Made by a program: the position numbers and the translations under genes | Shown: one piece after another, positions 17,979 to 55,858 of the stretch | Layout of the letters: each line of letters begins with the position of its first letter | Position numbering within the stretch: the first letter of the stretch is position 1 | The notes under the pieces: model-generated | Seen by the model: only the letters and a program-made list of their open reading frames with translations | Databases searched by the model: none | Told to the model about the DNA's origin: nothing | NCBI GenBank assembly: GCA_053919585.1 | Contig: CM132823.1 | Direction: 5' to 3' (one strand) | From: Euprymna scolopes | Taxonomy: Eukaryota | DNA length: 64,000 nt

Positions 17979-20773
17979 CATGCAAATTCTTTTTACATNN
18001 NNNNNNNNNNNNNNNNNNNNNNNNNNNNNNNNNNNNNNNNNNNNNNNNNNNNNNNNNNNNNNNNNNNNNNNNNNNNNNNNNNNNNNNNNNNNNNNNNNNN
18101 NNNNNNNNNNNNNNNNNNNNNNNNNNNNNNNATTTTTTTCGACGGAAACCAAAATTTTATTTTCAAAACAAAAGTAAAATTAATATAATTTTGTTATTCA
18201 AATAAAATCAATTTTTTGTTTTGAAATCAATTCAATCCGAATCACAAAAAAAAGTGTTTAAATTTATTAAAATTTAAATGTTCTTTTTTCATCGAATTAA
18301 TTTGTTTGAAATTTGAACCAAAACAAATTAATTCATGAAGTTCGTAAATTTGACCACCAAATCTCTCCAATTTAATGATCAAGCATAACTCCATCCACCC
18401 ACCTCTCAGTCCACATTCTCTCTCTCTAGCTGGGAGCACACACGAGGCAATAAAGAGAAGAAGCAGAATAAAAGTTTTATATTTTTTCCAACAAAAATGT
18501 CTGTGAAAATGAAACAAAAATGAGGGTTGCAAGGAGTTGTCATTGTAAACAAAAAATTGAAATTCAGTTCGAAATTAACATTTTATTTGTCAGTTCAATA
18601 AACGAACAATTCATCACAAACAAAAGGAGTTCATTCATGGCTAGGTCTCCATATTAGACTTGCGCAAGCATAAATAAATTAAACTTCTATAAAATGAACA
18701 AAAAAATTTATTTAAAAAAAAAATTTTTTTTTCGTTTATAAAATATATTTAACATTTCCATTCCAATTTTTTCAACAAAAACCAAAATGTTATTTTCAAT
18801 ACAAAAACGGAATGAATATAAATTTTTTTTTTTTTTTTTTTTTTGGTTTAAAGTCAAACAATTTTGGATTTGGAAAAAAAAATTAAAAACTTTTCTTTTT
18901 CTACTGAATTTGTTTGAAATTTGAATTGGATTACAAAAAAATTGTCCAAATTTATTAAAATTTAAAATTTTATTTTAAAACGAACACTGAATAAGTTCAC
19001 ATTCATGCACACGTCAGTTGGTTGCACTAGAGCTTTCCACATTCCCCCGCACCAATATTATGTCATGAATAAAACGCTAATGCTATACTCTATGAAAGAA
19101 GTACCAATATTTCGCAACAGATAAGATGCCATCCTCCAAACATTGGAATTCGGATGAGCATGCAAATTCTTTTTACATTAATTGCTTCAATATGAATAAA
19201 ATAAATAAAAAATTAAAAAAACAAAAACAAAAAAAACAATTTTTTTTTTTTCACATTTTATTTCTTTTTATAAAATGTTTAAAATAAAAAAAAATTTCAA
19301 TTTTTTTTGACGGAAACCAAAATTTTGTTTTCAAAATAAAATTAATATTTTTTCATTCTTCAAATAAAATCAATTTTTTACTAAAAACAAAATTCAATCC
19401 GAATCGCAAAAAAAAAAATTGTTTTAAATTTTCTCTTTTTCATCGAATTAATTTGTTTGAATCATGATGTTCATAAACTGATCACCAAATCTTCCAACTT
19501 TAAGGATCAACACGAATCCGCAAATGCCATCCAAATAATCCCAATAATTTATTCCCTCAAGTTGAAAATTTTCTAATTTGTCTCCTTTTATTGTAAACGA
19601 ATGAATTTTTGAATTTTCATCCAAAACAGAAATTTTTTCGTGTTATTTAAAATTTGCACAAATTCAAAGCATTGTGTTCTACCTTTTCTGAAATCTAATA
19701 ATATTCTAACCTCATTTTATGGGTAGTTGGATTGGAATTCTTCAACAAATTTCAAAAGATTTTTAATTTATTTTAAAACGAACACTAAATAGGTTCACAA
19801 ATGCAAATTCTTTTACATTAATTGCTTCAATATAAATAAAATAAATAAAAAATTTAAAAAAAAAATTTTTTTTTCACATTTTATTTCTTTTTATAAAATG
19901 TTTAAAATAAAAAAAAGATTTCAATTTTTTTTGACGGAAACCAAAATTTTGTTTTCAAAATAAAATTAATATTAAAGTGGCATCAGTCAACCAGTCTGTG
20001 TTTGCTCTCAATGTTGGTCTTGTGCTCTGTCACAGCCTGCAACATATTTTTGCCCTGAATAAAACCTGAATCGCATACTCCATGGAAACATGAGAAATAC
20101 CAATATTTTGCTACAGATAAGATGCCATCATCCAAACACGAATCGCATTGGAATTCGGATGACGAAGCAAATTCTTGTTACATTAATTCCTTCGACAGAA
20201 TCTGTGAAACGACAAAGCTTTTCCAGTTCACAAATTCTTCATGACATTTCAGACATTTGCAATTTGTTTTGGCTCTGTCCAAAGTTTTGATGAAACATGA
20301 TTCGCATACTCCATGGAAACATGAAGCATTTGAAGAGTCTAGTTGTCTGTAATACCTTTTTTCTTTCCTTTGTGAGTTTATTTTATTGTTTCTAAATGTA
20401 CCGTGACATTTTTAAAATATAATTTTCTTTTTTCGTCCTGTTTTCTTTCGTGTGTGTTTGTATTAGTTATTTCTTAATTGTTTTGTGTATTTTCTTCTTA
20501 ATCATCAGTCTTTCCTATATTATTGTGTAATTGGTGCTCCCATCCTCATGTGTGAATGGTAGGTGTATGATGCAAAGGTCGCATAAGGAAGAAACCAAGC
20601 ATACCGATATATAAGAAATAAATGTAGATTTATTTAGATAAAAAATGCAAAAGAGAGAATAAGTGACAATAAGAGTTTGGTAAAAAGAGATTGTTAGTAA
20701 TGTTGCTTGTGTCATTGGAAGCGTTATTGTCAATCTTTACTTGTTGATAGTCCAGCGAATAGAGAAAGAAATC

Positions 20774-20815
20774 TATAAAACAGGAAGTGACGTAGTTGCA
20801 TTGCCCTCTGGTGGC
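20774..20815. promoter_or_regulatory. ETS/CRE composite plus CTCF-like motif upstream of a RING pseudogene copy
   Basis: caggaagtgacgt (ETS+CRE) and tgccctctggtggc (reverse complement CCACCAGAGGGC, CTCF core). Duplicated at 44901-44934. Confidence 0.45.
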
Positions 20816-21922
20816 AAGGCATGTGTTACTAGAGTTAAAGGGCGATAAGCGTGTTTTGCTTAAGAGTAAAGTCTTGTCTATGAGTCTGTTGGCTGGGAAA
20901 TTTCGATTTCCACAAATTCTCATCTTCTCCAGCAAGAGTTGATAAGTTGTGGACAGTGACAGGAGAGGGAGAGAAATCTGTGTTGCTTGCCGGTTGAGTC
21001 CTCTCTGATGGTTTTTGTGTTTCTACAGCGGGCTAAAAATAGTTCCTAAGAGACAAATGAAATTCATCTGCTCTGCTAACAGATGGGCATTAGTTTGCAG
21101 AAGCAAATATTCTTTATTCTGTTTACTGCTATAAATTTTTTATTTTTGTAATTTAAACATTTTCCTAAACAAATTAGACCTCTTGGGTTTAAAGGGAGGC
21201 AATCACTTTTTTCCAATAATGATGTGAAATTCACGTTTCACTTCTGTTGGTCTTAAGGAATATTGGAAAACTGGAGATTGCCTATTTTCTATTGACATTT
21301 TCTATTTGAAACAAAACACTGACATATCACAGATCTTTGTTCATCAAATGATCAGAATTTAGTTAACGTTGTCTTTCTTCCATTCCATCGATTTGTTCGT
21401 ACAGTCTCAAAGCCTTGTTTGGCTTTTTCTAGAATCAATTGATATTCCAAATATTTTATTTTTCTTTTAAATTCAAACAATTTTTGATTTGGAAAACAAA
21501 AACATTCCATCTGCATTACAAGAAAATTGTCCAAATTTATTAAAATTTTATTTTTTCACGAATGAATTTGTTTGAAATTTGAATCAAAACAAAGGATGTT
21601 TGTAATTTGATCACCAAATCTCCCCACTTGAGGGAATAAATGAATTATTGGGAATTAGTTGAATGGCATTCCTGGATTCATGTTGAATCTTTCAAATCGA
21701 AAATTTTCCAATTTGTCTTATTTTATTGTAAATGAATGAATTTTTTAATTCCCATCAAAAAAAAAAAAAAAAAAAAAAAAAAATTCTATCATATTTTTCA
21801 AACATAAAAAGAAACTTTTTGTTTCAACAATTTTTTTTGTTTAATTTAAAGAAAAAATTTTAATTTTCATTAAAACCACAAACTCCAAAAATGTCCATGG
21901 AAATGAAATTAATATCCTAGAG

Positions 21923-26599: not shown

Positions 26600-27200
26600 T
26601 CGCCATTTTTTTTTTTTTTTGTGAGTTCAAAAAGCAAAGTTAAAAGGGCAACATTTGTGCTCATGTCATTTCTCACGGATTCATTCGTGTGTGTGTAGCG
26701 TAACATTTTCCCAATATATTTCTGTTTTTCATGAAGTGCACAATTGTTCCGCATCCTCATCACCATTGTAATTGCATCAGACATGCCATTGCATCCATAT
26801 CTTTAAAGGTGTGTTCCGTTTTTATAAATCTGTTGTCTTTAGATGCAAATTGTTACACAAGAACTTTCCACACTCCCCGCACCAATATTTTACCATGAAT
26901 AAAACCTGAATCGCATATTCCACGGAAACATGAGAAATACCAATATTTTGCTATAGATAAGATGTCATCATCCAAACACAAATCACATTGGAACTCTGAT
27001 GATGAAGCGAATTCTTGTTACATTAATTCCCTCAAAAGAATCTATGAAACGGCAAAGTTTCACAAATTCTTCATGACGTTTCAGACATTTGCAATTTGTT
27101 TTTGCTCTGTCCAAATTTTTGATAAAACACAACTCGCATATTCCATGGAAACATGAGAAGCATTTGAAGAGTCTAGTTAGGTGTCGCAGCCAACACATCA
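26600..27200 (-). pseudogene. Most complete RING-B-box (TRIM-like) pseudogene copy
   Basis: FKCFSCFHGICELCFIKNLDRAKTNCKCLK(R)HEEF, then QCDLCLDDDILSIAKYWYFSCFRGICDSGFIH, then KYWCGECGK, with frameshifts. Confidence 0.6.
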
Positions 27201-29304
27201 ATAAAGTGATTGATATCGATTAGAAGCCATTGTTTTCTCAAATCATGAGGAAAGAAAGTCAAACTGAAACAAATAGAAAATGTATTAGATTTTAGAATGT
27301 GTGTGTGTGTGTGTATATATATATATAATTCCCCTGAATGCCATCCTCCGAACACGTGTGTGTGTGTGTGTATATATACACACACACATATATATATAAT
27401 TCCCATGAATGCCATCCTCCGAACACGTATCACATTGGAATTTGGATGACGATACAAATTTTTGCTGCATTAATTCCTTGAACAGAATTTGTGTGACAAG
27501 AGTCAACACGAATCCAGGAATGCCAGCCGAGTAATCCCAATAATTCATTTATTTCTTCAAGTTAAAAATTTCCTAATTTGTCTCCATTTCTTGTAAATTT
27601 TTTTTATTTTCATCCAAAACAAAAAATCATTTTGTGTTTTTCGAACATACACAAAATTTGTTGCCTCATTCAACAATTTTTTTTTTTTTTAAACTATAAG
27701 AAAGGAAAATTCTTATTTCCATTAAAACGACAAAAATGTCTGTAAAATAAAACAAAAATATGAGGATTGGAAGGAGTTGTCATTCAAAACAGAAGAAAAT
27801 TCATTATTTTGTCAGTTCAATAAATGAACGATTCATCACTAACAAAAATGTTTTAATCATTTTTATTTACGTGAATCAAAGCTTCTCCAGCTGATAAGCT
27901 GTTGCGGTCAGTTGCAGGAAAGAGGGATCGGACATTTGCAATTTTCTTTGGCCCTTTCCAAATTTTTGATGAAATACGACTCGCATACTCCATGGAAACA
28001 TGAGAAGCATTTTGAAAGTCTAGTTAGTTGTCGCAGCCAACACATCTATAAAACGATTTGAAGCCATTGTCTTCCAAAAAACACAAAAAAGTCAAACCGA
28101 AACAAATAAAAAAAAATATAAAATATTGGATTTCATAATCCTTGATTTTGTAATGTAAGATATGACTTAGATACTCCATGGAAACCTAGGAGTATTTTGC
28201 TCAGACAAACTTGTTTGGAAACTCGATCTGTGATGGCCACTGTTACTTTACGTTAAATCGCAATATTTATAATGAGTGGAGGAGTTCATTCATGGCTAGG
28301 GTAAGGAGAGTTGGCCACCAAATTCTAACTTTTTTTATATTTCTTTCGCTAGTGTTGAGGTGATTGGTTGTATCAAGCTGAATATTTGTACATGTAAACC
28401 TAAATGAAGTCAGCCTTTTCTATAACTCGATAACAAAATACAACAAAATGAGCATATTTACTAGTCTTTACATTATTTCTGCATCATAATAACATCTGAT
28501 AATGTCCTGAAATATGCTCTCGGCTCAGCCATATACATGTCTTCATATGATCAATACTACACGTGAATGATGAAATATAAGCACGCACACACGCACTTGT
28601 TAGAAATCTGCGTCCCAGATGTATTTTAATTAGCAAATGTTCAGGTTTTCCAGCACCTCTTTAAAGAAGAAAGTGTTGTTGGTGCATTCTGTTGTTCCAA
28701 AGAGTTTGGTTCGAGTCAGCTTGACTTTGATGATGCTAAATGGCACTCTATCAATGTCTTCAACCTGAGGCTTGATGACCTTTTTCACTGCTTAGAAAAT
28801 CTCTATTCTCGCCTCTGTGTCACCAACGTACAAAGTCGCTGACTTTTTGCCTTCATACTGACACAGCACAAAATCTTCAGAGCTAACACTTTTATTTTAT
28901 CACAAATTAATCTGTTTTAAATTTGAATCAAAACAAATTAATTCAGGATGTTTGTAATTTGACCACCAAATCTACCCATTTATGGCATAAATTAATTATT
29001 GGGATTACTTGGACAGATTGGAAGAAGTAAGCTGTTTCTTTGCCGAGGGTTGGTATTGAATTGTCACCTTCTCTAATGAGTTAGTAAGTTATTGGATTGA
29101 GTGGGTCTTTCATGGCATCCTTTCTCAGGATTGGAAATTCCTCTTTCTGTTTGACAACTTTATTACGAACCCTTCAAAGGGCCACATTCATGTGCATGTC
29201 AAGAGTCAAGTCATTACACCCAAATCTTTAAATACGTCTTAATTAATAAAATCTGTTGCCTTTGGATGCAATGGTTGCACAAAAAAAAACTTTCTGCATT
29301 CCCC

Positions 29305-32300
29305 GCACCAATATTTCGCCATGAAATATGAATCGTATACTCTATGGAAATATGAGAAGTACCAATATTTTGCCATGAAATATGAATCATATACTCTATG
29401 GAAATATGAGAAGCACCAATATTTTGCCATGAAATATGAATCGTATACTCTATGGAAATATGAGAAGCACCAATATTTTGCCATGAAATATGAATCGTAT
29501 ACTCTATGGAAATATGAGAAGCACCAATATTTTGCCATGAAATATGAATCATATACTCTATGGAAATATGAGAAGCACCAATATTTTGCCATGAAATATG
29601 AATCGTATACTCTATGGAAATATGAGAAGTACCAATATTTTGCCATGAAATATGAATCGTATACTCTATGGAAATATGAGAAGCACCAATATTTTGCCAT
29701 GAAATATGAATCATATACTCTATGGAAATATGAGAAGCACCAATATTTTGCCATGAAATATGAATCATATACTCTATGGAAATATGAGAAGCACCAATAT
29801 TTTGCCATGAAATATGAATCGTATACTCTATGGAAATATGAGAAGTACCAATATTTTGCCATGAAATATGAATCGTATACTCTATGGAAATATGAGAAGT
29901 ACCAATATTTTGCCATGAAATATGAATCGTATACTCTATGGAAATATGAGAAGCACCAATATTTTGCCATGAAATATGAATCGTATACTCTATGGAAATA
30001 TGAGAAGCACCAATATTTTGCCATGAAATATGAATCGTATACTCTATGGAAATATGAGAAGCACCAATATTTTGCTATGAAATATGAATCGTATACTCTA
30101 TGGAAATATGAGAAGTACCAATATTTTGCTATGAAATATGAACCATATACTCTATGGAAATATGAGAAGCACCAATATTTAGCCATGAAATATGAATCGT
30201 ATACTCTATGGAAATATGAGAAGTACCAATATTTTGCTATGAAATATGAACCATATACTCTATGGAAATATGAGAAGTACCAATATTTTGCCATGAAATA
30301 TGAATCGTATACTCTATGGAAATATGAGAAGTACCAATATTTTGCCATGAAATATGAATCGTATACTCTATGGAAATATGAGAAGCACCAATATTTTGCC
30401 ATGAAATATGAATCATATACTCTATGGAAATATGAGAAGCACCAATATTTTGCCATGAAATATGAATCGTATACTCTATGGAAATATGAGAAGCACCAAT
30501 ATTTTGCTATGAAATATGAATCGTATACTCTATGGAAATATGAGAAGCACCAATATTTTGCCATGAAATATGAATCGTATACTCTATGGAAATATGAGAA
30601 GCACCAATATTTTGCCATGAAATATGAATCGTATACTCTATGGAAATATGAGAAGCACCAATATTTTGCCATGAAATATGAATCGTATACTCTATGGAAA
30701 TATGAGAAGCACCAATATTTTGCCATGAAATATGAATCATATACTCTATGGAAATATGAGAAGTACCAATATTTTGCCATGAAATATGAATCGTATACTC
30801 TATGGAAATATGAGAAGCACCAATATTTTGCCATGAAATATGAATCGTATACTCTATGGAAATATGAGAAGCACCAATATTTTGCCATGAAATATGAATC
30901 GTATACTCTATGGAAATATGAGAAGCACCAATATTTTGCCATGAAATATGAATCGTATACTCTATGGAAATATGAGAAGTACCAATATTTTGCTATGAAA
31001 TATGAACCATATACTCTATGGAAATATGAGAAGCACCAATATTTTGCCATGAAATATGAATCGTATACTCTATGGAAATATGAGAAGTACCAATATTTTG
31101 CCATGAAATATGAATCATATACTCTATGGAAATATGAGAAGCACCAATATTTTGCCATGAAATATGAATCGTATACTCTATGGAAATATGAGAAGCACCA
31201 ATATTTTGCCATGAAATATGAATCGTATACTCTATGGAAATATGAGAAGCACCAATATTTTGCCATGAAATATGAATCGTATACTCTATGGAAATATGAG
31301 AAGCACCAATATTTTGCCATGAAATATGAATCGTATACTCTATGGAAATATGAGAAGTACCAATATTTTGCTATGAAATATGAATCGTATACTCTATGGA
31401 AATATGAGAAGCACCAATATTTTGCCATGAAATATGAATCGTATACTCTATGGAAATATGAGAAGCACCAATATTTTGCCATGAAATATGAATCGTATAC
31501 TCTATGGAAATATGAGAAGTACCAATATTTTGCCATGAAATATGAATCGTATACTCTATGGAAATATGAGAAGTACCAATATTTTGCCATGAAATATGAA
31601 TCGTATACTCTATGGAAATATGAGAAGTACCAATATTTTGCCATGAAATATGAATCGTATACTCTATGGAAATATGAGAAGCACCAATATTTTGCCATGA
31701 AATATGAATCGTATACTCTATGGAAATATGAGAAGCACCAATATTTTGCCATGAAATATGAATAGTATACTCTATGGAAATATGAGAAGCACCAATATTT
31801 TGCTATGAAATATGAATCGTATACTCTATGGAAATATGAGAAGTACCAATATTTTGCTATGAAATATGAACCATATACTCTATGGAAATATGAGAAGCAC
31901 CAATATTTTGCCATGAAATATGAATCGTATACTCTATGGAAATATGAGAAGTACCAATATTTTGCTATGAAATATGAACCATATACTCTATGGAAATATG
32001 AGAAGTACCAATATTTTGCCATGAAATATGAATCGTATACTCTATGGAAATATGAGAAGTACCAATATTTTGCCATGAAATATGAATCGTATACTCTATG
32101 GAAATATGAGAAGCACCAATATTTTGCCATGAAATATGAATCATATACTCTATGGAAATATGAGAAGCACCAATATTTTGCCATGAAATATGAATCGTAT
32201 ACTCTATGGAAATATGAGAAGCACCAATATTTTGCCATGAAATATGAATCGTATACTCTATGGAAATATGAGAAGCACCAATATTTTGCCATGAAATATG

Positions 32301-34240
32301 AATCGTATACTCTATGGAAATATGAGAAGCACCAATATTTTGCCATGAAATATGAATCGTATACTCTATGGAAATATGAGAAGCACCAATATTTTGCCAT
32401 GAAATATGAATCGTATACTCTATGGAAATATGAGAAGCACCAATATTTTGCCATGAAATATGAATCGTATACTCTATGGAAATATGAGAAGCACCAATAT
32501 TTTGCCATGAAATATGAATCGTATACTCTATGGAAATATGAGAAGCACCAATATTTTGCCATGAAATATGAATCGTATACTCTATGGAAATATGAGAAGC
32601 ACCAATATTTTGCCATGAAATATGAATCGTATACTCTATGGAAATATGAGAAGCACCAATATTTTGCCATGAAATATGAATCGTATACTCTATGGAAATA
32701 TGAGAAGCACCAATATTTTGCCATGAAATATGAATCGTATACTCTATGGAAATATGAGAAGTACCAATATTTTGCTATGAAATATGAACCATATACTCTA
32801 TGGAAATATGAGAAGCACCAATATTTTGCCATGAAATATGAATCGTATACTCTATGGAAATATGAGAAGTACCAATATTTTGCCATGAAATATGAATCAT
32901 ATACTCTATGGAAATATGAGAAGCACCAATATTTTGCCATGAAATATGAATCGTATACTCTATGGAAATATGAGAAGCACCAATATTTTGCCATGAAATA
33001 TGAATCGTATACTCTATGGAAATATAAGAAGCACCAATATTTTGCCATGAAATATGAATCGTATACTCTATGGAAATATGAGAAGTACCAATATTTTGCT
33101 ATGAAATATGAATTGTATACTCTATGGAAATATGAGAAGCACCAATATTTTGCCATGAAATATGAATCGTATACTCTATGGAAATATGAGAAGCACCAAT
33201 ATTTTGCCATGAAATATGAATCGTATACTCTATGGAAATATGAGAAGTACCAATATTTTGCCATGAAATATGAATCGTATACTCTATGGAAATATGAGAA
33301 GTACCAATATTTTGCCATGAAATATGAATCGTATACTCTATGGAAATATGAGAAGCACCAATATTTTGCCATGAAATATGAATCGTATACTCTATGGAAA
33401 TATGAGAAGTACCAATATTTTGCTATGAAATATGAATCGTATACTCTATGGAAATATGAGAAGCACCAATATTTTGCCATGAAATATGAATCGTATACTC
33501 TATGGAAATATGAGAAGCACCAATATTTTGCCATGAAATATGAATCGTATACTCTATGGAAATATGAGAAGTACCAATATTTTGCTATGAAATATGAATC
33601 GTATACTCTATGGAAATATGAGAAGCACCAATATTTTGCCATGAAATATGAATCGTATACTCTATGGAAATATGAGAAGCACCAATATTTTGCCATGAAA
33701 TATGAATCGTATACTCTATGGAAATATGAGAAGAACCAATATTTTGCTATGAAATATGAATCGTATACTCTATGGAAATATGAGAAGCACCAATATTTTG
33801 CCATGAAATATGAATCGTATACTCTATGGAAATATGAGAAGCACCAATATTTTGCCATGAAATATGAATCGTATACTCTATGGAAATATGAGAAGCACCA
33901 ATATTTTGCCATGAAATATGAATCGTATACTCTATTGAAATATGAGAAGTACCAATATTTTGCTATGAAATATGAATCGTATACTCTATGGAAATATGAG
34001 AAGCACCAATATTTTGCCATGAAATATGAATCGTATACTCTATGGAAATATGAGAAGCACCAATATTTTACCATGAAATATGAATCGTATACTCTATGGA
34101 AATATGAGAAGCACCAATATTTTGCCATGAAATATGAATCGTATACTCTATGGAAATATGAGAAGCACCAATATTTTGCCATGAAATATGAATCGTATAC
34201 TCTATGGAAACCTGAGAAATACCAATATTTTGCTACAGAT
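29305..34240. repeat. Tandem satellite, 91 x 54 bp
   Basis: Unit g[c/t]accaatattttgc[c/t]atgaaatatgaa[t/c]c[g/a]tatactctatggaaatatgagaa. Unit starts at 29305 and 34219 are 4914 = 91x54 bp apart, so there is no net indel. Confidence 0.99.
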
Positions 34241-34288
34241 GACGTGACCCCCATCATTAACGTTAATGATGGGGGTCACGTCATCTGT
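34235..34288. other. Perfect 54-bp palindrome, putative parvoviral terminal hairpin
   Basis: acagatgacgtgacccccatcattaac|gttaatgatgggggtcacgtcatctgt marks the end of the viral segment. A second copy ends the third EVE at 55364-55407. Confidence 0.8.
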
Positions 34289-34977
34289 TTTTTTTTACCT
34301 GATAATTTTAAAATAAAATAGAATTGCATTGCATGGGTCCGAGCCCTGATGCGGGTAGTGCCACGGCCTAATATCATAGTCATTGCTTAATATAGTTTTT
34401 AGCTGTGACCTAATTCCTTGACCTAGTTTTGTAATTTTCAATCGTCGCTGACGCTGATTCGATGACGGTTCCTTTGAATTTCTTTAACGATCCCATGTCT
34501 GATGGTCGATCTGAAAGGGAATATCGAACATGCGAAATAATATTGAATCATGCGAAATAATATTGAACCATGCCACTGTCATATCAGTTCAAGATGCAGT
34601 ATTATAAGAACGATTTGAGTTTAGTGTATATATATAGTTTATTTACAATATGTACATCATCGTCAGTGTGTTTTAGAAAATATTTACAAAAGTCCAAGGA
34701 ATCATTGATCAGTGTCATTGAGCGTATAGTTTATCCATCGGAGTCACTGAGCACTTCCTCACATTCTAAAAATAGCTGTGACGTCGGCCCTCGTCCGGTG
34801 ATTTGTCGTAGGTACAGTGCCAATGTGTAGTTAATGTTTTTTTTTTTTTTTTGGGGGGGGGGGGGTCACGAAGATGTCGTCGTCCGGCTCCTCTGACTCA
34901 CTGAGCACTATGACCCCGGAGACCGGCGTGTCCTCGGCCAGTGTGTCCTGTGAGAAGCTCGCTGCCGCGGGGCTGGG

Positions 34978-36711
34978 TTAGCTTGGTCCTCTAGGACACC
35001 TGTGTGCTTTGCAACCGTGCGTTTTACAGTACTGTGTTGGCTGGTTTTCGTCTATTTCGCAGGCCTGTATCATCCAGTCCTCGACGTCGGAGTCGTCGGA
35101 GATTCGCACGTTTTCTACTTCTTCTCCAGCCATGAGGTCCTGGAACAGCTGTCTGCGTGCTTTCATGTATCCTGCCTGTTTGTCTGGTGACAATCCTTCC
35201 ACTGCTTGGACAGTGAAATTTGTAGATGCGGCTGGTTCTTCTATATCCTCCTCCTCCTGGAATTGGTAGGTCTGGTTCGTATAGTCCATGACGTATTGTC
35301 TCCAAACGGTTAGCCACATTGTAGGATTCAATTCTCGGACTCCCCAACCCTTTAGGGCCGGCATAGGCCTTTTGGTTTCGTATAGGAACATGCGGTTGTG
35401 CATTGCCATGCGTTCCTGGGGTACGTGTCGCCATGGGTCGTCGTTGGATGTAGAGAGACACGGTGTCCTTTCTAGGTATCGTTCGGCCTGGTGCTTTACG
35501 TTGACTGCTGTCGTTGTGCCCTCAAGTATACATTTGCCCTCCTCTACATTTTGTGGTGTAAACCACATTTCGTCTGTGTAGATAAGGGTCTTATCGACGC
35601 ACGAACCGAACGTGAAGTTGTCGGAGGCCTGACATCGCATTCGGCCGCAATTCATGAGGCCGTTCCTGATCGATCTGAGCACGTATGATTTGCCAGAGTT
35701 ACTGGGTCCCGTTATGTGGAACCCGTTCTTTTTTGCTCGTATCATGTGGCATACTTCGAACAGGTTTCTACCGAACTCAACCGGATCGAAATTGTGGTAT
35801 TGGGCCCATGCGTCGTAAATGTCCAACGACTTCTGCACTGACCAATACCTGTTACCGTCCATGCTGAAGAGGTCCTTCTTTTGACGGATCTGTTCAAATA
35901 TGGGGGTGACCTTTGTTTGGATCTGTAGGTCGCTTGCTGCCGCCTGCATGATCGGTTGAATATTTTGGGTATTGGTAAAGATGTGTTCCCACGTGTCCCG
36001 GACCTTTGTATTGGCAGATTGTTTACAGTAGAGCATGACTTTTGCCATGTCAGTACTGTTACATTTTTTCATTATGTCTAAAATGAATTTATATTTTTGA
36101 CCTCTCAGGGTCGATTTTCCAGTTAGACCTGTGTCTACGGTCGGCTCGTCCTGTTTCTTTAAGGGCTTTTCGCATATTTTTCTGTACGCGGCTAGTTGAC
36201 CGGGCGTTTCCAGGTGCCCTGCAGCTACTACTGAGCGTTTCGACGGGTCCATTGTCAGGTAACTGCAGAGTCCGTACGGGTTGTAAATCTTCTGGCATGA
36301 AATTTGGTACGGGTTGATTTGCCGTTCCGCCTGTAGTTTTTTCATTTGCACGTAACTGTGCTCACACGTAGGGTGGTTGTGGTGCCACGTGATCATGTGG
36401 AAATGGTCTACGTCTGCGCAATGTTTCAGACTGCTTGGCCCCGCTACGAGGTATACTATTATGTAGGGTCGCTGGTCGAGAATTCTGGCGAAGTACCCGT
36501 GGGTAGCGTTTGATGGCTGTAACGTTATCGCATCCTGGTATGGTTTGGTCTCCGTAGTTCCTGGACTTAGTCTGAATTCTCCCTCGGTTTCCCAGCGGTA
36601 GATCCAGGTGTAGGGACGGATTTGTTTGCCGTTGACAGTTTCTCCGTTTACTAGGTCGTTGAATTGTTGTTGTTCCTCTCTTTGGGTGTTGCTGCTGGTC
36701 GTGGCTTCCAT
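34978..36711 (-). CDS. NS1: Endogenous parvovirus NS1 (HUH nuclease + SF3 helicase), copy 1
   Basis: HUH DHFHMI, catalytic-Tyr-like YGLCSYL, Walker A GPSNSGKS, Walker B IYTDEM, motif C STSN. TATAAAA ~45 nt upstream (36757-36763). Confidence 0.9.
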   Translation of the reverse strand: MEATTSSNTQREEQQQFNDLVNGETVNGKQIRPYTWIYRWETEGEFRLSPGTTETKPYQDAITLQPSNATHGYFARILDQRPYIIVYLVAGPSSLKHCADVDHFHMITWHHNHPTCEHSYVQMKKLQAERQINPYQISCQKIYNPYGLCSYLTMDPSKRSVVAAGHLETPGQLAAYRKICEKPLKKQDEPTVDTGLTGKSTLRGQKYKFILDIMKKCNSTDMAKVMLYCKQSANTKVRDTWEHIFTNTQNIQPIMQAAASDLQIQTKVTPIFEQIRQKKDLFSMDGNRYWSVQKSLDIYDAWAQYHNFDPVEFGRNLFEVCHMIRAKKNGFHITGPSNSGKSYVLRSIRNGLMNCGRMRCQASDNFTFGSCVDKTLIYTDEMWFTPQNVEEGKCILEGTTTAVNVKHQAERYLERTPCLSTSNDDPWRHVPQERMAMHNRMFLYETKRPMPALKGWGVRELNPTMWLTVWRQYVMDYTNQTYQFQEEEDIEEPAASTNFTVQAVEGLSPDKQAGYMKARRQLFQDLMAGEEVENVRISDDSDVEDWMIQACEIDENQPTQYCKTHGCKAHRCPRGPS

Positions 36712-36879
36712 CCTGACGGTCTGGAGCGAGTGCCTGATCTGTGGTGGATGTGCGTCTTTTATAGCACGTTATTGCGTCGTAAGAAATTAGAATCTGCTGC
36801 CGGTTTAGTAATTATCTGTAGAAGTAATTGAATTATGCTGACGTTGATGAATTTGAAAAATAGGTAATTGATTTCTGCC

Positions 36880-37150
36880 CTATTTGTTTACGAAACGCCC
36901 ATAAGGCATGCCGAATATTTGACCGTTGTGGTCCCATATGTGTGTGCCGTGATTATGAAGCATTCCTTTCGCTGATTGGCCGTGGAAATGTCTATTGGGC
37001 GGTACAATGGTGTGGTATTCGTAACTGAAGTCCGCCGATGTTGCTGATAGTGCTTGTTTGTGGGTGGTGACTGGGACCTTCTGCGGGTGGATAAGTGCGT
37101 CACAGACTATTTCAATTTCTAGCATATAAGTTATTTCGAAGTTGAAATAT
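36880..37150 (-). pseudogene. Probable parvoviral capsid (VP) C-terminal fragment
   Basis: Open frame YFNFEITYMLEIEIV...GMPYGRFVNK* with a beta-strand pattern like the last jelly-roll strand, contiguous with the NS1 promoter. The assignment is inferential. Confidence 0.45.
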
Positions 37151-37814
37151 AAAATAGAATTGCATTGCATGGGTCCGAGCCCTGATGCGTTAAGTGCCAC
37201 GGCCTAATATCATAGTCATTGCTTAATATAGTTTTTAGTTGTGGCCTAATTCCTTGACCTAGTTTTGTATTTTTCAATCGTCGCTGACGCTGATTCGATG
37301 ATGGTTCCTTTGAATTTCTTAAACGATCCCATGTCTGATGGTCGATCTGAAAGAGAGTATCGAACATGCGAAATAATATTGAATCATGCGAAATAATATT
37401 GAACCATGCCAATGTCATATCAGTTCAAGATGCAGTATTATAAGAACGATTTGAGTTTAGTGTATATATATAGTTTATTTACAATATGTACATCATCGTC
37501 AGTGTGTTTTAGAAAATATTTACAAAAGTCCAAGGAATCATTGATCAGTGTCATTGATCGTATAGTTTTTCAATCGGAGTCACTGAGGACTTCCTCACAT
37601 TCTAAAAATAGCTGTGACGTCGGCCCTCGTCCGGTGATTTGTCGTAGGTATACTGCCAATGTGTAGTTTATTATGTTTTTTTTTTTTTTTTTGGTGTTAC
37701 GAAGTCGTCCTCGTCCGGCTCCTCCGTTTCTGAGTCGCTGAGCACTATCACTCCGGAGACGGGCGAGTCCTCTCCGACTGTGTCCTGTGAGATGCTCGGT
37801 GCTGCGGGGCTGGG

Positions 37815-39534
37815 TTAGTTTGTTACTGTAGGACATCTGTGTGCCTTGCAACCGTGTGTCTTACAGTACTGCGTCGGCTGGTTTTCGTCTATTTCGCATG
37901 TTTCAGTCATCCAGTCCTCGACGTCGGAGTCGTCTGATATGCGCAGGTTTTGTACCTCCTCTCCTGCCATGAGGTCCTTGAAGAGCTGTCTCCGAGCTTT
38001 CATGTATCCTGCCTGTTTGTCCGGTGACAGGCCTTCTACTGCTTGGACAGTGAAGTTTGTAGATGCGGCTGGTTCGTCTATATCCTCCTCCTCCTGGAAT
38101 TAGTACGTCTGGTTCGTATAGTCCATGACGTATTGTCTCCAGACGGTTAGCCACATGGTTGGATTTAGTTCTCGGACTCCCCAACCTTTTAGGGCAGGCA
38201 TGGGCCTTTTGGTCTCGTACAGGAACATTCGGTTGTGCATTGCCGTTCGTTCAAGGGGTCGTCGTTACTTGTAGACAGGCATGGTGTTCTCTCTAAGTAT
38301 TGTTCCGCCTGATGCTTTACGTTTACTGCTGTTGTAGTACCCTCCAGGATGCACTTTCCCTCCTCTACATTCTGTGGTGTGAACCACATTTCGTCCGTGT
38401 AGATGAGGGTCTTGTCCACGCAGGATCCGAACGTGAAGTTGTCGGAGGCCTGACATCGCATCCGGCCGCAGTTCATGAGGCCGTTCCTGATCGACCTCAG
38501 CACGTACGATTTGCCGGAGTTACTTGGTCCTGTTATGTGGAACCCGTTCTTTTTTGCGCGTATCATATGGCAGACCTCGAATAGGTTTCTTCCGAACTCC
38601 ACTGGATCGAAGTTATGATGTTGGGCCCACGCGTCGTAAATGTCCAACGACTTTTGCACTGACCAATACCTGTTACCGTCCATGCTGAAGAGGTCCTTCT
38701 TTTGACGGATCTGTTCGAATATGGGTGTGACCTTTGTTTGGATCTGTAGGTCGCTTGCTGCCGCCTGCATGATCGGTTGAATATTTTGGGTATTGGTAAA
38801 GATGTGTTCCCACGTGTCCCGGACCTTTGTATTGGCAGATTGTTTACAGTAGAGCATGACTTTTGCCATGTCAGTACTGTTACATTTTTTCATTATGTCT
38901 AAAATGAATTTATATTTTTGACCTCTCGGGGTCGATTTTCCAGTTAGACCTGTGTCTACGGTCGGCTCGTCCTGTTTCTTTAAGGGCTTGTCGCATATTT
39001 TTCTGTACGCGGCTAGTTGACCGGGCGTTTCCAGGTGCCCTGAAGCTACTACTGAGCGTTTCGACGGGTCCATTGTCAGGTAACTGCAGAGTCCGTACGG
39101 GTTGTAAATCTTCTGGCATGAAATTTGGTACGGGTTTATCTGTCGTTCCGCCTGTAGTTTTTTCATTTGCACGTAACTGTGCTCGCATGTAGGGTGGTTG
39201 TGGTGCCACGTGATCATGTGGAAGTGGTCCACGTCTGCGCAATGTTTCAGACTGCTTGGCCCCGCTACGTGGTATACTATTATGTAGGGTTGCTGGTCGA
39301 GAATTCTGGCCAAGTACCCGTGGGTAGCGTTTGCTGGCTGTAACGTTAGCGCATCCTGGTATGGTTTGGTCTCCGTCGTCCCCGGCTTTAGGCTGAATTC
39401 TCTCTCGGTTTCCCAGCGATAGATCCAGGTGTACGGCCGGATTTGTTTGCCGTTGACTGTTTCTCCGTTAACTAAGTTGTTGAATTGTTGTTGTTCCTCT
39501 CGTTGGGTGCTGCTGCTGCTGGTCGTGGCTTCCA
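37815..39534 (-). pseudogene. NS1: Endogenous parvovirus NS1, copy 2 (disrupted)
   Basis: Same motifs as copy 1. A frameshifting deletion at ~38255 removes WRHV, and there is a CAA>TAA stop at ~38100. TATA at 39581-39587. Confidence 0.9.
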
Positions 39535-39689
39535 TCCTGACGGTCTGGAGCGAGTGCTTGATCTGTGGTTTATGTGCGTCTTTTATAGCACGTATATGCG
39601 TCGTAAGAAATAAGAATCTGATGCCGGTTTTGTAATTATCTCTGTAAGTAATTGAATTATGCTGACGTTGATGAATTTTGAAAGTAGCT

Positions 39690-42600
39690 GGGTTATTCCA
39701 GCCCAATTCATCCAGCCCCGACACACCCCCTCTTGGATTTTTTTCATATTTACACCATACAAACTTTGGGTTAAAACTAAGAAATCTGCAATTTCAGCCC
39801 AGTTGGATTTCAGGAACATATTTTTTTTCACAGTTGGTTTCGGCCTGGAAATCAAAAATTGCTATCTCATGACGTAGAATTTTCGACTCCCGGCGTTTTA
39901 CAAAATTTGCATTTTTGTTGCAAAAAATAAAGCTCTGGAGCTAAATATTCACACATATAAGGTTTTGAGGGCAAGGAATCCAAAAATCATGGTTAGAAAG
40001 ATGGCAAATGAGAGGAAGTACCTTATTTTTACCATTTTAGGTGGTGCCGCAGCACTTTTTTAGAGCTTGTTTGGGGCGATATTTTATTGAGAAAAAAACA
40101 TAACTGTGGTGCTTTGCCAGACTTCTCCTTTGGATTTTTAAAGTGACAATGGGTTGGAAATTACAAAAATCAAATAAAACCTTTCGGCATATTTGACATT
40201 TCCAGACACTAAAGCCTCAAAATTGGCATTTTTATAAAAATTTAAGGATTTTTTGGTGAATTTGGCAACAATCTAATCTTAAGTTATGATCAATATCTAG
40301 AGCTGAAAAAAGACTTGGATCGGCTCATTATAGCCCATTTTCATAATATAATGTCAAATTACATCATATAAAAGGATATGGACCCCTACTTCACAGTCAA
40401 AATGGACAAAAAAATAGTCGAAAATAAAAGACTGATGCATAATCTAGTTTATCATAAGAAAAACTGTCAAACAAATATAAAACAGACATTTGTTATAACT
40501 CCAACTATCGACTTAATCTGTCAAAATAGTTCTGAGTCTTATTTTTCTCCTCCTTGGTGATGAAATATGTTCTACCATTCACTGAAATACTTGGGGTCTG
40601 CACTCTCATAACGACCTTGCTTAGTGGAATATAGCCTCTATCCCTATTAGTTGGCCAGTGGAATTGATGTGATGGTCCATGTGGATGCAGGAATTTGCAA
40701 GTAAGATCTTTCTCTTCCCTGTTGACACTCTCAATCAATGCTAACCACCAATATCCATCAAAAATGCAAGTAATGTAGTCATTGCATTTGAGCAACTCCA
40801 GAGTTTCATCTAGCGGCGTAGGCATGTCCAGGAAAGAATGGTCGATAAAGATCGTTGTGTCAGCACTCAGTTGCTTGCCCTGAATAGTAAACTGAGAAGT
40901 TGGTTTGAAATAGTGACAGCTCCTTGTACCAGGCACAGTATCTCCCAGTTTATATCTCATTTGAAGTTTCTCTCGAACTGAAACCATGTCTTCTTTGTCG
41001 ATCTTTAGAAACATGATACCAGTGATCGATGATCTGCAAAAGTCTGCAACAGCATGAAAAGTGAGTATTTGGTCTTTTATTGGCCTTTGCAAGCTGGCAC
41101 GGAGAACTTTGCGTTTGACAGCCCCACCAATTCCATCACAGGGTGATTTGCCATGGCTAGTTGCAAAAAATGCCCAAGTTGCATCAATTCCAAAATCTGA
41201 TGAGTGATGGCAAAGGTTAATAAATGCTTTGAAGTTTTTATATTGGGCAGCACAGCCATCGCTGAAGTACTCTACACTCTTGATCCAGGGAAATTTCTCT
41301 TTGATGTACAACATCACCATTCTTTGCAGTTCATGCACAAAACAGGTGTCATGCTCAAGGTCATCTGAAATGATGCATAATGAGATCTGTTGAAGTTTAC
41401 CATTGTTATCTTTGTAATAAATTACCACTGGATGTATGGTACACTGGTCTTTGTTCCAGTGATATCCCTGGATCTCATCTTGCACCACGTAGTGATAATT
41501 TTCCGCAAAGTCCAAGAGAAGTATACATTCGGTCTCAGTTATTTCTTCTCTTCTCTTTTTTAGATACTGCGCTTGGCTCTTTGCTGTGAAGGAATGGGTC
41601 GTTAGATTATCAACATTGTATACCAATATCTCTATGAAGTAATCTACATCAGCCATCTGTGTCCGTAGCATTGTCCTATCCACACTCTCCCACTGACTAT
41701 ATGACATCTCACTGTCAATTTCCAATTCAGTAAATTTATCTCTGATATACTTCTCTAGAGCAGGGAAACCTGGGCATTTAGGACAACGGTGGACCATACA
41801 TTCAAGACTATTGGTGTCGCAAACTACCAAGGCCATCAAATCTTTGTAAGTGATATTAAAATTGGGATTTTCAGTTGGTACATTAGCAGCACTCTCATCT
41901 CTGGATTCTTCAGCTTTCCTTCTGAGCTGAGTCTTGACAGTTGAAACAAAGCAGTCAACAAGCAATTTGGTATTTTGATGGTGGGTGCAAACACAAACTG
42001 AATGAGAACCTGATGTCAAGACGGTGACGCACCATTTTGGACGGAGCTCACAGAACTTTGAAAGACCTATTTTGTGTTCAGGATAGCTTTCTTTGTAAGC
42101 TACATAAAGCTCCTTAAGATTGCATAATAGGAGCCGTTTCTGGACATGAACTTTATTACCAATGCTCACAAAATCTTTCCCTCCAGGCATTAACCGTGAA
42201 AATTCATTGTCCTCATAGAAAGCCAAGACAGAATTGATAACCTCTTTTGAGAGACCTCTCCCCTTCTTTTTCTGTGGCAATGAAAGAATACCTCGATCCT
42301 TTTTCAGTTGCCGTGCTTCACGTACTATATATTCAGAGACATTGAAATATTCAGACACCTCTTTTCGAGACCAACTTTCCGGAGCTAAAGTCATCAACTG
42401 GATCCTCTCACTGGTTTTCATTTCTTTATTCTCAAGTTTGTCCTTCATTGCATCCAACAAACAATCATAATCTTTTGCCTTTGCCACTAAATCCGTTTGA
42501 CTCGTTTGGCTGCTAATAGGGCTTCCTAATTCAGGGCTAGAGATGTTAAGGACTTTGACAGCTGCCTCTACTTGCATTTCATAGTTTCTTTCTAATTTCT

Positions 42601-43858
42601 CTCTGACAATATTGATTTTTGTGTGCTTCTGCATTCTACCGGTTTTTATAGGGGATATATCAAACATCATTAGACTGTCATTCAGTTTCTCTCTCTTTTG
42701 TTCAATTTGCGACTCATTTTCAAGGTCTTGGTTGTCACTTCCTTCTGTTTCACTTGTATCTTCTAACTTCTTGGCAGCTACTTCACAGTGACGGCAAAGC
42801 TTCCAGCCAGGAACAACATGGTAGCCCTTCTGCTTTAGCATCTCAGCCATGTCTAACTTGATAGCACGATCACCCTTTACCTTTCTTTTGTGCTTCAAAA
42901 AGATGTTGCAGCACTTTGTATATTTTTTCTCAAAGTAATGCCCCAAATGAAATTCGTGATACCTGCAAATGTTAGCAACGGTTTCATCAGTGAGTGTGAC
43001 ACCAGCTCTTAATTTGAGCACAGTTCTTACATCATGCTCTAATGCAGTTATTGGTGTTGAAGATGGCTTCAGATTGCGGTGACATGCACTCTTCATTAGT
43101 AATCCAAAAGAACATTGAGGAGCACTTGTCATCAATGATGTATCTCCTCCCTCTCGTTTCCTTGGTTCAGAAGACATTCTTAATTTATTGCTCTGGAAGA
43201 AAGATGTGAAATAATAATTCACAATGAGCAGAATATGCAATACTCAACTGAATCAGAACTTTTTGAGATATTGGAATCAGAAAAATTTTAACCTAATTTC
43301 TGATTCCAAAAACAATTCTTTTAATATCATTTTAAACTTAATTTTCCACTGCTGGTACTGATAAATATTTATTGTTTTTAAACTATTAGTAAAAATAAAC
43401 TTTAGATCATAATAACATCAAAATAAGGTGTAAATTTAATTTACTTGCATAAAATAAACAAAACAGAAATTGAAACTTCATGAAAATTCGTTCTTAACCT
43501 TTAGAAAATGCAGTTTATTTACAAGTTTATAAAAAAAATGGTTTTCAAGAAAAATAATATCAACTTTATTGTCAATTAAATCAAACGTAGAATATAAAAC
43601 GTGCCTTTTTTATAATTTATTTATTTTATGCTTTTGTCCTCTATGACAAGGCAAAAGATGTGAAAAAGAACATCTTACCAAGTTTGTTTAATCTTGGCCA
43701 TGTTAATGTTACTGATAAAACTTCATAAAATCAGTAAAACCACGTCCCTTTCCTCCTAACCTTAAGTCCTGATGGTAATACGAATAATGAAATTTAATAA
43801 AATTAACAAAAGATAAAAAGTATATGCGATGTGGATGTAACAGGGTTTTTAATAGTTC
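39690..43858 (-). mobile_element. Sola2-like DNA transposon, one end truncated
   Basis: Begins GGGTTATTCC exactly where homology to the viral upstream region ends. No matching TIR at the other end, which abuts the VP fragment. Confidence 0.65.
40505..43177 (-). CDS. DDD transposase, Sola2-like (~890 aa, uninterrupted)
   Basis: VCVCTHH, LLDFAENY, FSDGCAAQYKN, FFATSHGKSPCDGIGG. Likely start is MSSEP after a ttccag acceptor. Confidence 0.8.
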   Translation of the reverse strand: MSSEPRKREGGDTSLMTSAPQCSFGLLMKSACHRNLKPSSTPITALEHDVRTVLKLRAGVTLTDETVANICRYHEFHLGHYFEKKYTKCCNIFLKHKRKVKGDRAIKLDMAEMLKQKGYHVVPGWKLCRHCEVAAKKLEDTSETEGSDNQDLENESQIEQKREKLNDSLMMFDISPIKTGRMQKHTKINIVREKLERNYEMQVEAAVKVLNISSPELGSPISSQTSQTDLVAKAKDYDCLLDAMKDKLENKEMKTSERIQLMTLAPESWSRKEVSEYFNVSEYIVREARQLKKDRGILSLPQKKKGRGLSKEVINSVLAFYEDNEFSRLMPGGKDFVSIGNKVHVQKRLLLCNLKELYVAYKESYPEHKIGLSKFCELRPKWCVTVLTSGSHSVCVCTHHQNTKLLVDCFVSTVKTQLRRKAEESRDESAANVPTENPNFNITYKDLMALVVCDTNSLECMVHRCPKCPGFPALEKYIRDKFTELEIDSEMSYSQWESVDRTMLRTQMADVDYFIEILVYNVDNLTTHSFTAKSQAQYLKKRREEITETECILLLDFAENYHYVVQDEIQGYHWNKDQCTIHPVVIYYKDNNGKLQQISLCIISDDLEHDTCFVHELQRMVMLYIKEKFPWIKSVEYFSDGCAAQYKNFKAFINLCHHSSDFGIDATWAFFATSHGKSPCDGIGGAVKRKVLRASLQRPIKDQILTFHAVADFCRSSITGIMFLKIDKEDMVSVREKLQMRYKLGDTVPGTRSCHYFKPTSQFTIQGKQLSADTTIFIDHSFLDMPTPLDETLELLKCNDYITCIFDGYWWLALIESVNREEKDLTCKFLHPHGPSHQFHWPTNRDRGYIPLSKVVMRVQTPSISVNGRTYFITKEEKNKTQNYFDRLSR

Positions 43859-44180
43859 ACGCTCCGCTGCCGTTGTCGTTCGCGACTGTGCTCGCCTCCG
43901 AATCGACTTCCATACCTGCTTCGCAGCTAGCAGTGTAAGTAGGATCAAGTTTAATTCGTTTAGGTGGGGGATCGAAGTAGTCGTCCAGTCCCAGGTAATG
44001 CTTTGCTCTGAGTGCCCCTCGCGATAAAGCTCCCAACACACCTGTTCCAGCAGAGTCCTTGTAGAATTGGTCATCTGCTTCTTTGGTCTTGCCTTTTCCG
44101 TAGTTGAAATCGTGTCTTTTTGCGGCCCAGTCCAAGCGATTTAGGGGAGGCAGGTATTTTTTGTAGTCGAGGTTTTTGCC
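43857..44180 (-). pseudogene. VP1: Parvoviral VP1-unique region fragment with phospholipase A2 domain
   Basis: GKNLD...PLNRLDWAAKRHDFNY...EADDQF (parvoviral PLA2 HDxxY motif), then NLS-like PPPKRIKL and a Gly/Ser-rich start. Confidence 0.85.
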
Positions 44181-45130
44181 CTGAATAAAACCTGAATCGC
44201 ATACTCCATGGAAACATGAGAAATACCAATATTTTGCTACAGATAAGATGCCATCATCCAAACACGAATCGCATTGGAATTCGGATGACGAAGCAAATTC
44301 TTGTTACATTAATTCCTTCGACAGAATCTGTGAAACAACAAAGTTTTTCCAGTTCACAAATTCTTCATGACATTTCAGACATTTGCAATTTGTTTTGGCT
44401 CTGTCCAAAGTTTTGATGAAACATGACTCACATACTCCATGAAAACATGAGAAGCATTTGAAGAGTCTAGTTGTCTGTAATACCTTTTTTCTTTTCTTTG
44501 TGAGTTTATTTTATTGTTTCTAAATGTATAGTGACATTTTTTAAATATAATTTTCTTTTTTCATCCTGTTTTCTGTCGTGTGTGTTTGTATTAGTTTTTT
44601 CTTAATTGTTTTGTGTATTTTCTTCTTAATCATCAGTCTTTCATATATTGTGTAATTGGTGCTCCCATCCTCATGTGTGAATGGTAGGTGTATGATGCAA
44701 AGGTCGCATAAGAAACCAAACATACCGATATATAAGAAATAAATGTAGATTTATTTAGATAAAAATGCAAGAGAGAATAAGTGACAATAAGAGTTTGGTA
44801 AAAAGAGATGATTGGAAATGTTGCTTGTGGTATTGGAATGCGTTATTGTCAATCTTTACTTGTTAATAGTCCAGCGAAAAGAGAAAGAAATCTATACAAA
44901 AGGAAGTGACGTAGTTGCATTGCCCTCTGGTGGCAAGGCATGTGTTGTGTTTGTGAGTTTGTTGGCTGGGAAATTTCAATTCCCACAAATTCTCATCTTC
45001 TCCAGCAAGAGTTAATAAGTTATTGTGGACAGTGACAGAAGGAGACAGATCTGTCTTCCTTGCCAGTTGAGTCCCCTGATGATTTTTGTGTTTCTACAAC
45101 TGGCTAAAAATAGTTCCTAAGAGACAAATG
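44173..45130 (-). repeat. Duplicate of host segment 20047-21058 (RING/B-box fragment + motif-rich upstream region)
   Basis: Colinear high-identity match, sandwiched between viral VP and NS1 fragments. Confidence 0.9.
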
Positions 45131-45630
45131 TGGAACCCGTTCTTTTTGGCCCGTATCATGTGGCATACCTCGAAGAGGTTCCGCCCGAATTCGACTGGAT
45201 CGAAACCGTGATACTCGGCCCATGCGTCGTAAATGTCCAGGCTTTTTTGTACAGTCCAGTAGCGGTTTCCGTCCATTGAGAACAGGTCCTTTTTCTGTCA
45301 TATCTGCTCGAATATTGGTGTCACTTTTGTTTGGATTTGCAGGTCACTGGCCGCGGCCTGCATTATGGGCTGAATGTTTTGAGTGTTCGTGAAAATGTGT
45401 TCCCATGTATCACGAAGTTTAGAGTTTGTAGACTGCTTGCAGTACAACATGACCTTGGCCATGTCGGTGCTGTTGCAGCGCCGCATGATGTCCAATATGA
45501 ACTTGTATTTTTGTCCACGTAGTGTGGACTTACCAGTGAAGCCTGTCTCAACATTCGGTTCCTCAGTTTTCTGCAGCGGTTTGTCACAGATTCTTCTGTA
45601 GATCGCAAGTTGCCCGGGCGTCTCCATGGT
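45128..45630 (-). pseudogene. NS1: Parvovirus NS1 internal fragment, copy 4
   Basis: ETPGQLAIYRRICDKPLQK...KVTPIFEQI*...YWTVQKSLDIYDAW...KKNGFH. A distinct variant, disrupted. Confidence 0.9.
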
Positions 45631-55363: not shown

Positions 55364-55407
55364 TGACGTGACCCCCATCATTAACATTAATGATGGGGGT
55401 CACGTCA
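55364..55407. other. Second copy of the putative viral terminal hairpin
   Basis: tgacgtgacccccatcattaacattaatgatgggggtcacgtca, with one central mismatch. Confidence 0.8.
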
Positions 55408-55858
55408 TCTGTTTTTTTTTTACCTGATAATTTTTAAATAAAATAGAATTGCATTGCATGGGTCCGAGCCCTGATGCGGGTAGTGCCACGGCCTAATATC
55501 ATAGTCATTGCTTAATATAGTTTTTAGCTGTGACCTAATTACTTGACCTACTTTTGTAATTTTCAATCGTCGCTGACGCTGATTCGATGATGGTTCGTTT
55601 GAATTTCTTTAACGATCCCATGTCTGATGGTTGATCTGAAAGAGAATATCGAACATGCGAAATAATATTGAATCATGCGAAATAATATTGAACCATGCCA
55701 ATGTCATATCAGTTCAAGATGCAGTATTATAAGAACGATTTGAGTTTAGTGTATATATATAGTTTATTTACAATATGTACATCATCGTCAGTGTGTTTTA
55801 GGAAATATTTACAAAAGTCCATAGAATCATTGATCAGTGTCATTGATCGTATAGTTTA

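Follow-up and report, generated by a model that had tools for sequence, protein, structure and literature searches.

What turned one short piece of a dead TRIM gene into a 4.9-kb tandem array, and did the virus that now lies against this array take part in its making? The question arises in the window analyzed here, a 64,000-nt stretch of Euprymna scolopes DNA on contig C41, in which a preliminary description had seen a satellite born from a zinc-finger pseudogene and expanded 91 times up to a viral hairpin. The array in question is:

29305..34233, no strand assigned: 54-bp minisatellite of 91.3 units, with 16 unit types among 91 whole units

The expansion of about 91-fold from position 29305 is borne out, with 91.3 copies at a period of 54, 97% matches and 0% indels. 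The modal unit type accounts for 47 of the 91 whole units, whose mean pairwise difference is 2.4%, with 10 singleton variants in 4914 bases. We searched the 5.9-Gb assembly (925 contigs) with a 31-nt pattern of the unit, allowing up to one mismatch, and with the reversed pattern as a control. All 85 genome matches fell inside the window (84 in the array and 1 at 16010), and the reversed control gave 0 genome matches. This genome-wide search, which had been proposed as a check, shows that the unit is specific to the locus and rules out a widespread satellite. The array is a single-locus minisatellite of 4.9 kb, not the satellite of the preliminary description: a satellite would form very long or multi-locus arrays, and here one 4.9-kb locus was found genome-wide. 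Its size fits the 0.5 to several kb expected of minisatellites born from short repeats.

The unit is not native TRIM text but a RING-derived piece inserted in the B-box between direct repeats of 15–17 bp. The window holds it in both expanded and unexpanded form, as follows:

15712..16247, minus strand: one-unit sister copy, with flank, left repeat (15995), RING-derived core, right repeat (16049) and the rest of the TRIM fragment
16903..16971, minus strand: unexpanded 52-bp seed
19049..19117, minus strand: unexpanded 52-bp seed
20047..21059, minus strand: TRIM fragment with a 58-bp-type insert, the virus-free counterpart of 44173–45130
26879..26953, minus strand: unexpanded 58-bp seed
29024..29304, minus strand: TRIM pseudogene fragment downstream of B-box 1 that flanks the array on its left and differs by substitution from 15712–15994 at 8 of 278 aligned bases
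44173..45130, minus strand: TRIM fragment of the 20047 type that starts inside the left repeat of the insert, with 39 substitutions in 952 bases against 20047–21059

The insert is present in every one of the 11 C41 fragments that span the site: those at 15995, 16903, 19049, 20047, 26879 and 44173, the array, and four outside the window. It is absent from all 8 TRIM loci compared on contigs C46 and C27, which were found by a genome search with the 15995 copy; these homologs match both sides of the unit, not across it. In the 8 loci, RING and B-box domains and others besides are encoded in single long frames, with matches to B-box families. The core of the insert is identical at 33–34 of 38 bases to the cluster's own RING, about 200 bases away; the RING text from which it was copied lies at 44416–44454, within the 44173–45130 fragment. 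On a tree, the cluster fragments (n = 8) form one clade (100/100), whose inner order the tree does not settle. Because all local fragments carry the insert, its core matches the RING and the fragments form a single clade, one old event made the seed. The insertion may have occurred by template switching or by duplication followed by deletion, which look alike here. The proposed local birth from a RING/B-box pseudogene is therefore upheld by the 11 of 11 local fragments that have the insert and the 0 of 8 TRIM loci elsewhere. The unit had been derived from the text AKYW-FSCFHGVCDSGF: its RING derivation stands, but this text is itself a chimera seen only in the cluster, and TRIM genes elsewhere have an uninterrupted B-box. 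A viral origin of the unit is ruled out, as it matches the RING and differs from the viral piece by 9 mismatches per 28 nt.

Most fragments on C41 have an insert period of 58 and three have 52; a period of 54 is confined to 15995 and the array. With the 58-base insert the TRIM frame is broken. The seed repeats at 15995 and 16049 are identical at 13 of 15 bases, and six further seeds are whole. No closer intact source gene outside the cluster appears among the 20 matches listed. The TRIM loci on C46 and C27 (L043–L050), together with others on C17, are members of a RING/B-box gene family that has expanded and whose genes appear to have a single exon; the divergence between this family and the C41 lineage, of which only fragments survive, is about 23–27%.

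The order of variants in the array bears on how it grew. The left and right repeats of 15995 differ at unit positions 2, 13 and 16. Classified by positions 2 and 16, the 90 inner junctions comprise 59 left-left, 16 right-left, 11 right-right, 3 left-right and 1 other or private, so that 86 of them fall into the three expected hybrid classes. The order of the junction classes gives a Fisher p of 7e-5, calculated on units that are not independent of one another. At a lag of 32 units, 11 of 31 non-modal units recur, which none of 5000 shuffles reached at any lag; as this match is imperfect, a block of 1.7 kb was duplicated and later overwritten in part. The array closes on an incomplete unit, which is the right repeat (91.3 copies). 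The unit variants in the expected repeat order and the 32-unit block duplication point to stepwise growth. The preliminary description had offered slippage or rolling-type amplification. A slippage-type start agrees with a motif between direct repeats whose differences are ordered as expected. A single burst of rolling copying is disfavored, since it would leave identical units or a strict higher-order period; we looked for these and found instead 16 unit types, interspersed variants and the imperfect 32-unit repeat.

Expansion to this size is not unusual in the genome. Arrays longer than 1 kb occur in 5 of the 15 control windows (10 kb each), one of them 60 bp × 101 at 96%, and kilobase arrays are thus common as judged from these windows. 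Another minisatellite, 32 bp × 108 at 94% and homogeneous, lies on C41 about 8.2–11.6 kb before the window (L039, L040), 38 kb upstream of the 54-bp array. The 54-bp seed folds back on itself at −6.4 kcal/mol (z −2.5, the best of 16 windows and so inflated); six other seeds give −0.8 to −4.3 kcal/mol and the modal unit −3.7. This slightly better fold-back is only a hint of why the lineage of the 54-bp seed expanded.

The far end of the array has a different history from its interior. The features from the end of the array onwards are:

34204..34240, no strand assigned: terminal 37 bases of the array locus, matching the 20047/44173-type paralog and not the 15995 type
34235..34288, no strand assigned: parvovirus-like terminal palindrome, perfect over 54 nt, its first 6–8 bases common to the host
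34289..37155, minus strand: viral piece 1, with the 3' non-coding region, the NS1 frame (34978–36768) and a short adjoining part
37149..39689, minus strand: viral piece 2, a second, broken NS1 region 91% identical to piece 1
39709..43857, minus strand: non-viral insert with a 912-codon frame (40505–43243) and no Pfam match
43858..44173, minus strand: viral piece with a partial phospholipase A2 (PLA2)-like region, cut at the junction with the TRIM fragment, with 1 shared base
55364..55412, no strand assigned: second hairpin copy, with no array adjoining

As first described, the expansion ends at the viral hairpin, and the palindrome overlaps the end of the array locus. The assignment of the terminal 37 bases comes from two diagnostic positions (unit position 47 and the first base of the closing repeat), alongside one private change. 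The first base of the junction is G in 90 of 90 inner junctions and A at the terminal one; the inner junctions derive from the 15995-type right repeat, and the array end is of the 44173 type. At the other side, the viral block (34235–44173) meets a 20047-type fragment inside the left seed repeat at 44173. Collinearity with 15710...21059 extends over the whole of 29022...45130, whose two ends show 2.6% and 4.1% substitutions, except that the 4 kb separating the two units is absent.

The viral assignment follows from an NS1 with SF3 helicase (Parvo_NS1, E 6e-18 in piece 1, and 1e-15), the terminal palindrome and the PLA2-like region (Phospholip_A2_4, E 0.007 at 43858–44173; a match in 1 of 2 frames scanned). 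Piece 1 is collinear with other copies, as is the viral block as a whole apart from an inner repeat and the 4-kb foreign insert, which is likely a transposon. An apparent TRIM-PLA2 fusion protein at 43857–44303 was rejected as a chance open frame at the junction, running from B-box text into a PLA2-like piece, with an upstream stop. The equal length of hairpin and unit (54) was judged to be chance, as no mechanism was found.

The parvovirus-like family is multi-copy and occupies 34235–44173, 45128–45631 and 55364–57924 in the window. Many of its copies retain the terminal hairpin, often broken at the center, and several, about 4.4–4.8 kb long, are bounded on either side by palindromes. The PLA2-like region belongs to a frame that lies upstream of NS1 and shares its strand; the usual parvovirus gene order is the opposite. 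The closest relatives of its NS1 are 9 unnamed proteins at 47–63%. Four mollusc metatranscriptomes contain 49–68% of the words sampled from the family, and the sequencing runs in which the viral part occurs bear the labels mollusc metagenome or organism A. This family may merit more attention than the array.

We put a probability of about 0.7 on the following reading: the minisatellite grew by slippage and unequal exchange from a direct-repeat seed in a dead TRIM gene, and the parvovirus end joined it later. In the cluster ancestor, B-box 1 received a copy of about 40 RING bases from about 200 bases away, together with a duplication of 15–17 bases; this end state is seen in the fragments, and template switching or duplication plus deletion may have produced it. 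Local duplications, visible in the cluster, multiplied the fragment, and one lineage shortened to period 54, giving the sisters 15995 and 29305. The first tandem copies would then have arisen when the right repeat mispaired with the left one, to which a modest fold-back of the looped-out strand may have contributed. Unequal exchange and conversion, as suggested by the variant pattern, would have lengthened the array, once by about 32 units. In the last step, which we slightly favor over its denial, the virus would have entered a 20047-type paralog, and recombination between a unit of the array and one of this paralog would have removed the 4 kb and left the hairpin flush with the array; the order of these events draws on the two diagnostic bases and the collinearity, and is accordingly put as a proposal. 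The array needs no function and probably persists neutrally in a piRNA-cluster-like region. Several points count against this reading, among them the small fold-back advantage of the 54-bp seed. The only expanded seed is the one that touches the hairpin (1 of the 8 seeds with both repeats whole), with an exact overlap, and one extra change (C-to-T at position 13) is required for the modal unit type if 15995 is ancestral.

The status of 15995 bears on this point. It had been described as the one-unit progenitor, with a flank of about 290 bp in common with the array and a single 54-bp unit followed by a 12-base tail. The common flank is confirmed (8 substitutions in 278 aligned bases, plus small indels), and so are the unit and its tail, present at 15995–16072; the one-unit copy therefore exists, but the rank of progenitor is overstated. 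Against the other paralogs, the flanks of 15995 and of the array locus each carry private changes, which makes the two loci sisters from a duplication, of which 15995 most likely retains the one-unit state. Conversely, 15995 might be a collapsed or converted derivative of an early array, the remaining history being as proposed above. This is kept in play by a derived T at unit position 47, which 15995 shares with 90 of the 91 array units while the last unit has the state of the RING and other paralogs, and by C at position 13, which is common to 15995 and array unit 1 alone. On the other hand, a patch of the 44173 type explains the last unit with fewer changes, and no second unit or remnant was found at 15995. 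We regard such a collapse as unlikely, at odds of roughly one chance in several.

The link to the viral integration that had been suspected can be examined across the family. The hairpin is present at 49 sites on 22 contigs, and all of them were surveyed with about 5 kb of flank or within the examined stretch. Within 300 bp of hairpins we set aside virus-internal repeats of 14–20 bp (L100, L101, L119 and 55385) and an AT-rich repeat (64–73%) at L121. None of the 48 other sites adjoins a tandem array; about 32 of these are independent, as 17 sites on C46 share flanks. The nearest true arrays lie 343, 344 and 356 bp from the hairpin center (L098, L108 and L113), about the density in the controls. 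Given 0 of 48 other sites and the frequency of arrays in the controls, the hairpin does not create arrays as a rule, and a general effect of the virus is ruled out across all 49 sites. The 17 sites on C46 (153–203 Mb) have an identical host flank and so represent one insertion multiplied by segmental duplication. At L086, L099 and L088, viral 3' sequence flanks the hairpin on both sides (head-to-head), as in replication intermediates.

A driving role of the virus at this one array is unlikely. Such a role would be played if array and integration were one event, in which a broken end in the right repeat kept re-annealing to the left one, or a small circle served as template, and capture of the hairpin brought the process to a close. 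The array does stand flush with the hairpin with 6–8 shared bases, both ends of the viral block lie in or beside seed repeats, and repeated switching could likewise yield the three right-to-left junction classes. Yet no array adjoins the other hairpins, the imperfect 32-unit block duplication speaks for later growth and turnover, the paralog type of the virus-adjacent end differs from that which gave rise to the inner junctions, and arrays of this size are common in the genome. We consider break-driven amplification improbable. Its fullest form, in which capture of the parvovirus hairpin at a chromosome break drove a one-event 91-unit array within a piRNA cluster and flooded the output with one TRIM-derived small RNA, is more improbable still.

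The piRNA setting itself has some basis. On the minus strand are 26 of the 27 non-repeat frames of at least 200 codons from −8 kb to +113 kb (about 121 kb, with bounds chosen after the fact), and 27 of 32 such frames over all 184 kb; microsatellites make up 1.9% of the region against 10.9% in controls. From this layout, the region is likely a candidate one-strand piRNA-cluster-like setting. The minus-biased frames (C41:1.54–1.66 Mb) come from transposons, retroelements and viruses and include hAT (22110–24050), RAG1-like (46658–48835) and DDE (50138–51238) frames, among others. The 912-codon frame at 40505–43243 and a 547-codon frame at 60062–61705 had no Pfam match at E 0.01 and are likely transposases; a relative of the latter lies at about 86 kb in window coordinates. 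An imperfect inverted repeat of 870 bp (80%) at 4115–4983 is MITE-like.

On another reading, the array was retained or expanded because it supplies many copies of one antisense piRNA directed at the TRIM family; we judge this very improbable. The strand bias of the frames would suit it, as would the RNA reads of runs X23/X24, in which the first mate was minus in 30 of 30, an orientation consistent with antisense transcription; it is what plus-strand RNA is expected to give in most stranded libraries, although the library chemistry is uncontrolled. Against it, the loose ends of these reads point to paralogs, and 0 of the 30 are 99% alike. There is also no close target: the best 28-nt array match has 6–8 mismatches to the 8 TRIM loci (and 9 to the adjoining viral piece), and no closer gene outside the cluster is found among the 20 matches listed. 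A working piRNA amplifier is unsupported.

Next in order stands the reading of the array, or of its length, as an assembly artefact, which is slightly less probable again. Of 24 listed runs, none of which bears a small-RNA label, we checked four over 34057–34700 as short-read contigs, reading 71% of X5 and the whole of X6; such contigs drop records and show presence, not absence, and their depth is no copy number. In X5, a 70-nt contig crosses from one unit into the next and shows T at position 16; no single-unit paralog has this form. In X6, the only two contigs over 34211–34232 among those displayed both continue into host TRIM, not hairpin, and the array-hairpin junction was not seen in the X6 contigs displayed. 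Depth over the units in X6 is 54–132, against about 9 at single-copy joints, and the array is visible in X6 by depth only. As a rough estimate, about a dozen units, not 91, would account for the summed depths of X5 and X6, which would be in line with an artefact; set against this are the 16 unit types in non-random order with 0% indels, the unit-unit junction contig in X5 and the position of the array in a 76-Mb contig. The X5 and X6 data are at most suggestive of an array without the hairpin junction, and of shorter alleles, as a VNTR would have. Finally, we give almost no credence to a repeat protein encoded by the minus frame, which reads AKYWCFSYFHRVYDSYFM repeatedly through all units (1678 open codons): a frame stays open by chance when the period is 54 and variant sites are few, the plus frame is open save for one stop, the minus frame starts within the viral hairpin, and none of the 30 RNA reads comes from the array itself.

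Returning to growth by slippage and unequal exchange with later viral joining, the locus can be set beside known systems. One-strand piRNA clusters such as flamenco hold dense, strand-biased transposon and virus fragments; dense strand-biased fragments and few microsatellites are likewise found here, as read from the DNA alone. At AAV integration sites, Rep-linked amplification of host DNA occurs, and rearranged, repeated host DNA beside a parvoviral terminus is also seen here; the resemblance is superficial, as nothing of the kind recurs where this virus joins host DNA elsewhere. Templated insertions that carry short duplications arise by polymerase theta end joining or replication template switching. 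The insert here is similar in being copied from about 200 bp away on the same strand with a short site duplication; it differs in being indistinguishable from tandem duplication followed by deletion, and in that the product later seeded a minisatellite. Literature searches found no papers on Rep-linked host-DNA amplification at AAV sites, cephalopod parvoviral elements, templated insertion combined with a minisatellite, or reversed parvovirus gene order, nothing of use on cephalopod piRNA clusters, and no description of this locus or viral family, in a scope that lay outside most subscription journals and supplements.

Endogenous parvoviral elements are known, and parvovirus-related sequences have been reported from molluscs (PMC5013282 and PMC11357303); junctions of B19V with host DNA have short shared bases (PMC11602146). 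The NS1 helicase, PLA2-like region, terminal palindrome and junction microhomology are the same here; the differences lie in the retention of hairpins at 49 sites and in a PLA2-bearing frame that precedes NS1 on its strand.

The closest parallel is the birth of minisatellites from short direct repeats. In the model of Haber and Louis (1998) and Taylor and Breden (2000), as given in PMC6947457, PMC3389668 and PMC2820488, a motif between short direct repeats starts the minisatellite; slippage or unequal crossing-over duplicates it, amplification follows and the terminal unit is incomplete (PMC6947457 and PMC3389668). A motif between direct repeats, amplification and an incomplete terminal unit are all present here. 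The repeats are longer (15–17 bp against 5–10 bp) and were made by an intragenic RING-into-B-box insertion, and at least 7 unexpanded seeds lie nearby. The start of a minisatellite is seldom visible because the seed is overwritten (PMC3389668). Here the stages stand side by side, from insert-free TRIM genes through at least seven unexpanded seeds (52, 54 and 58 bp) and a one-unit sister to the 91-unit array, and the locus is a natural test of what makes one seed expand, be it period, repeat identity or fold-back. It brings no new model and confirms a known one, as an unusually well documented case of minisatellite birth from flanking direct repeats.
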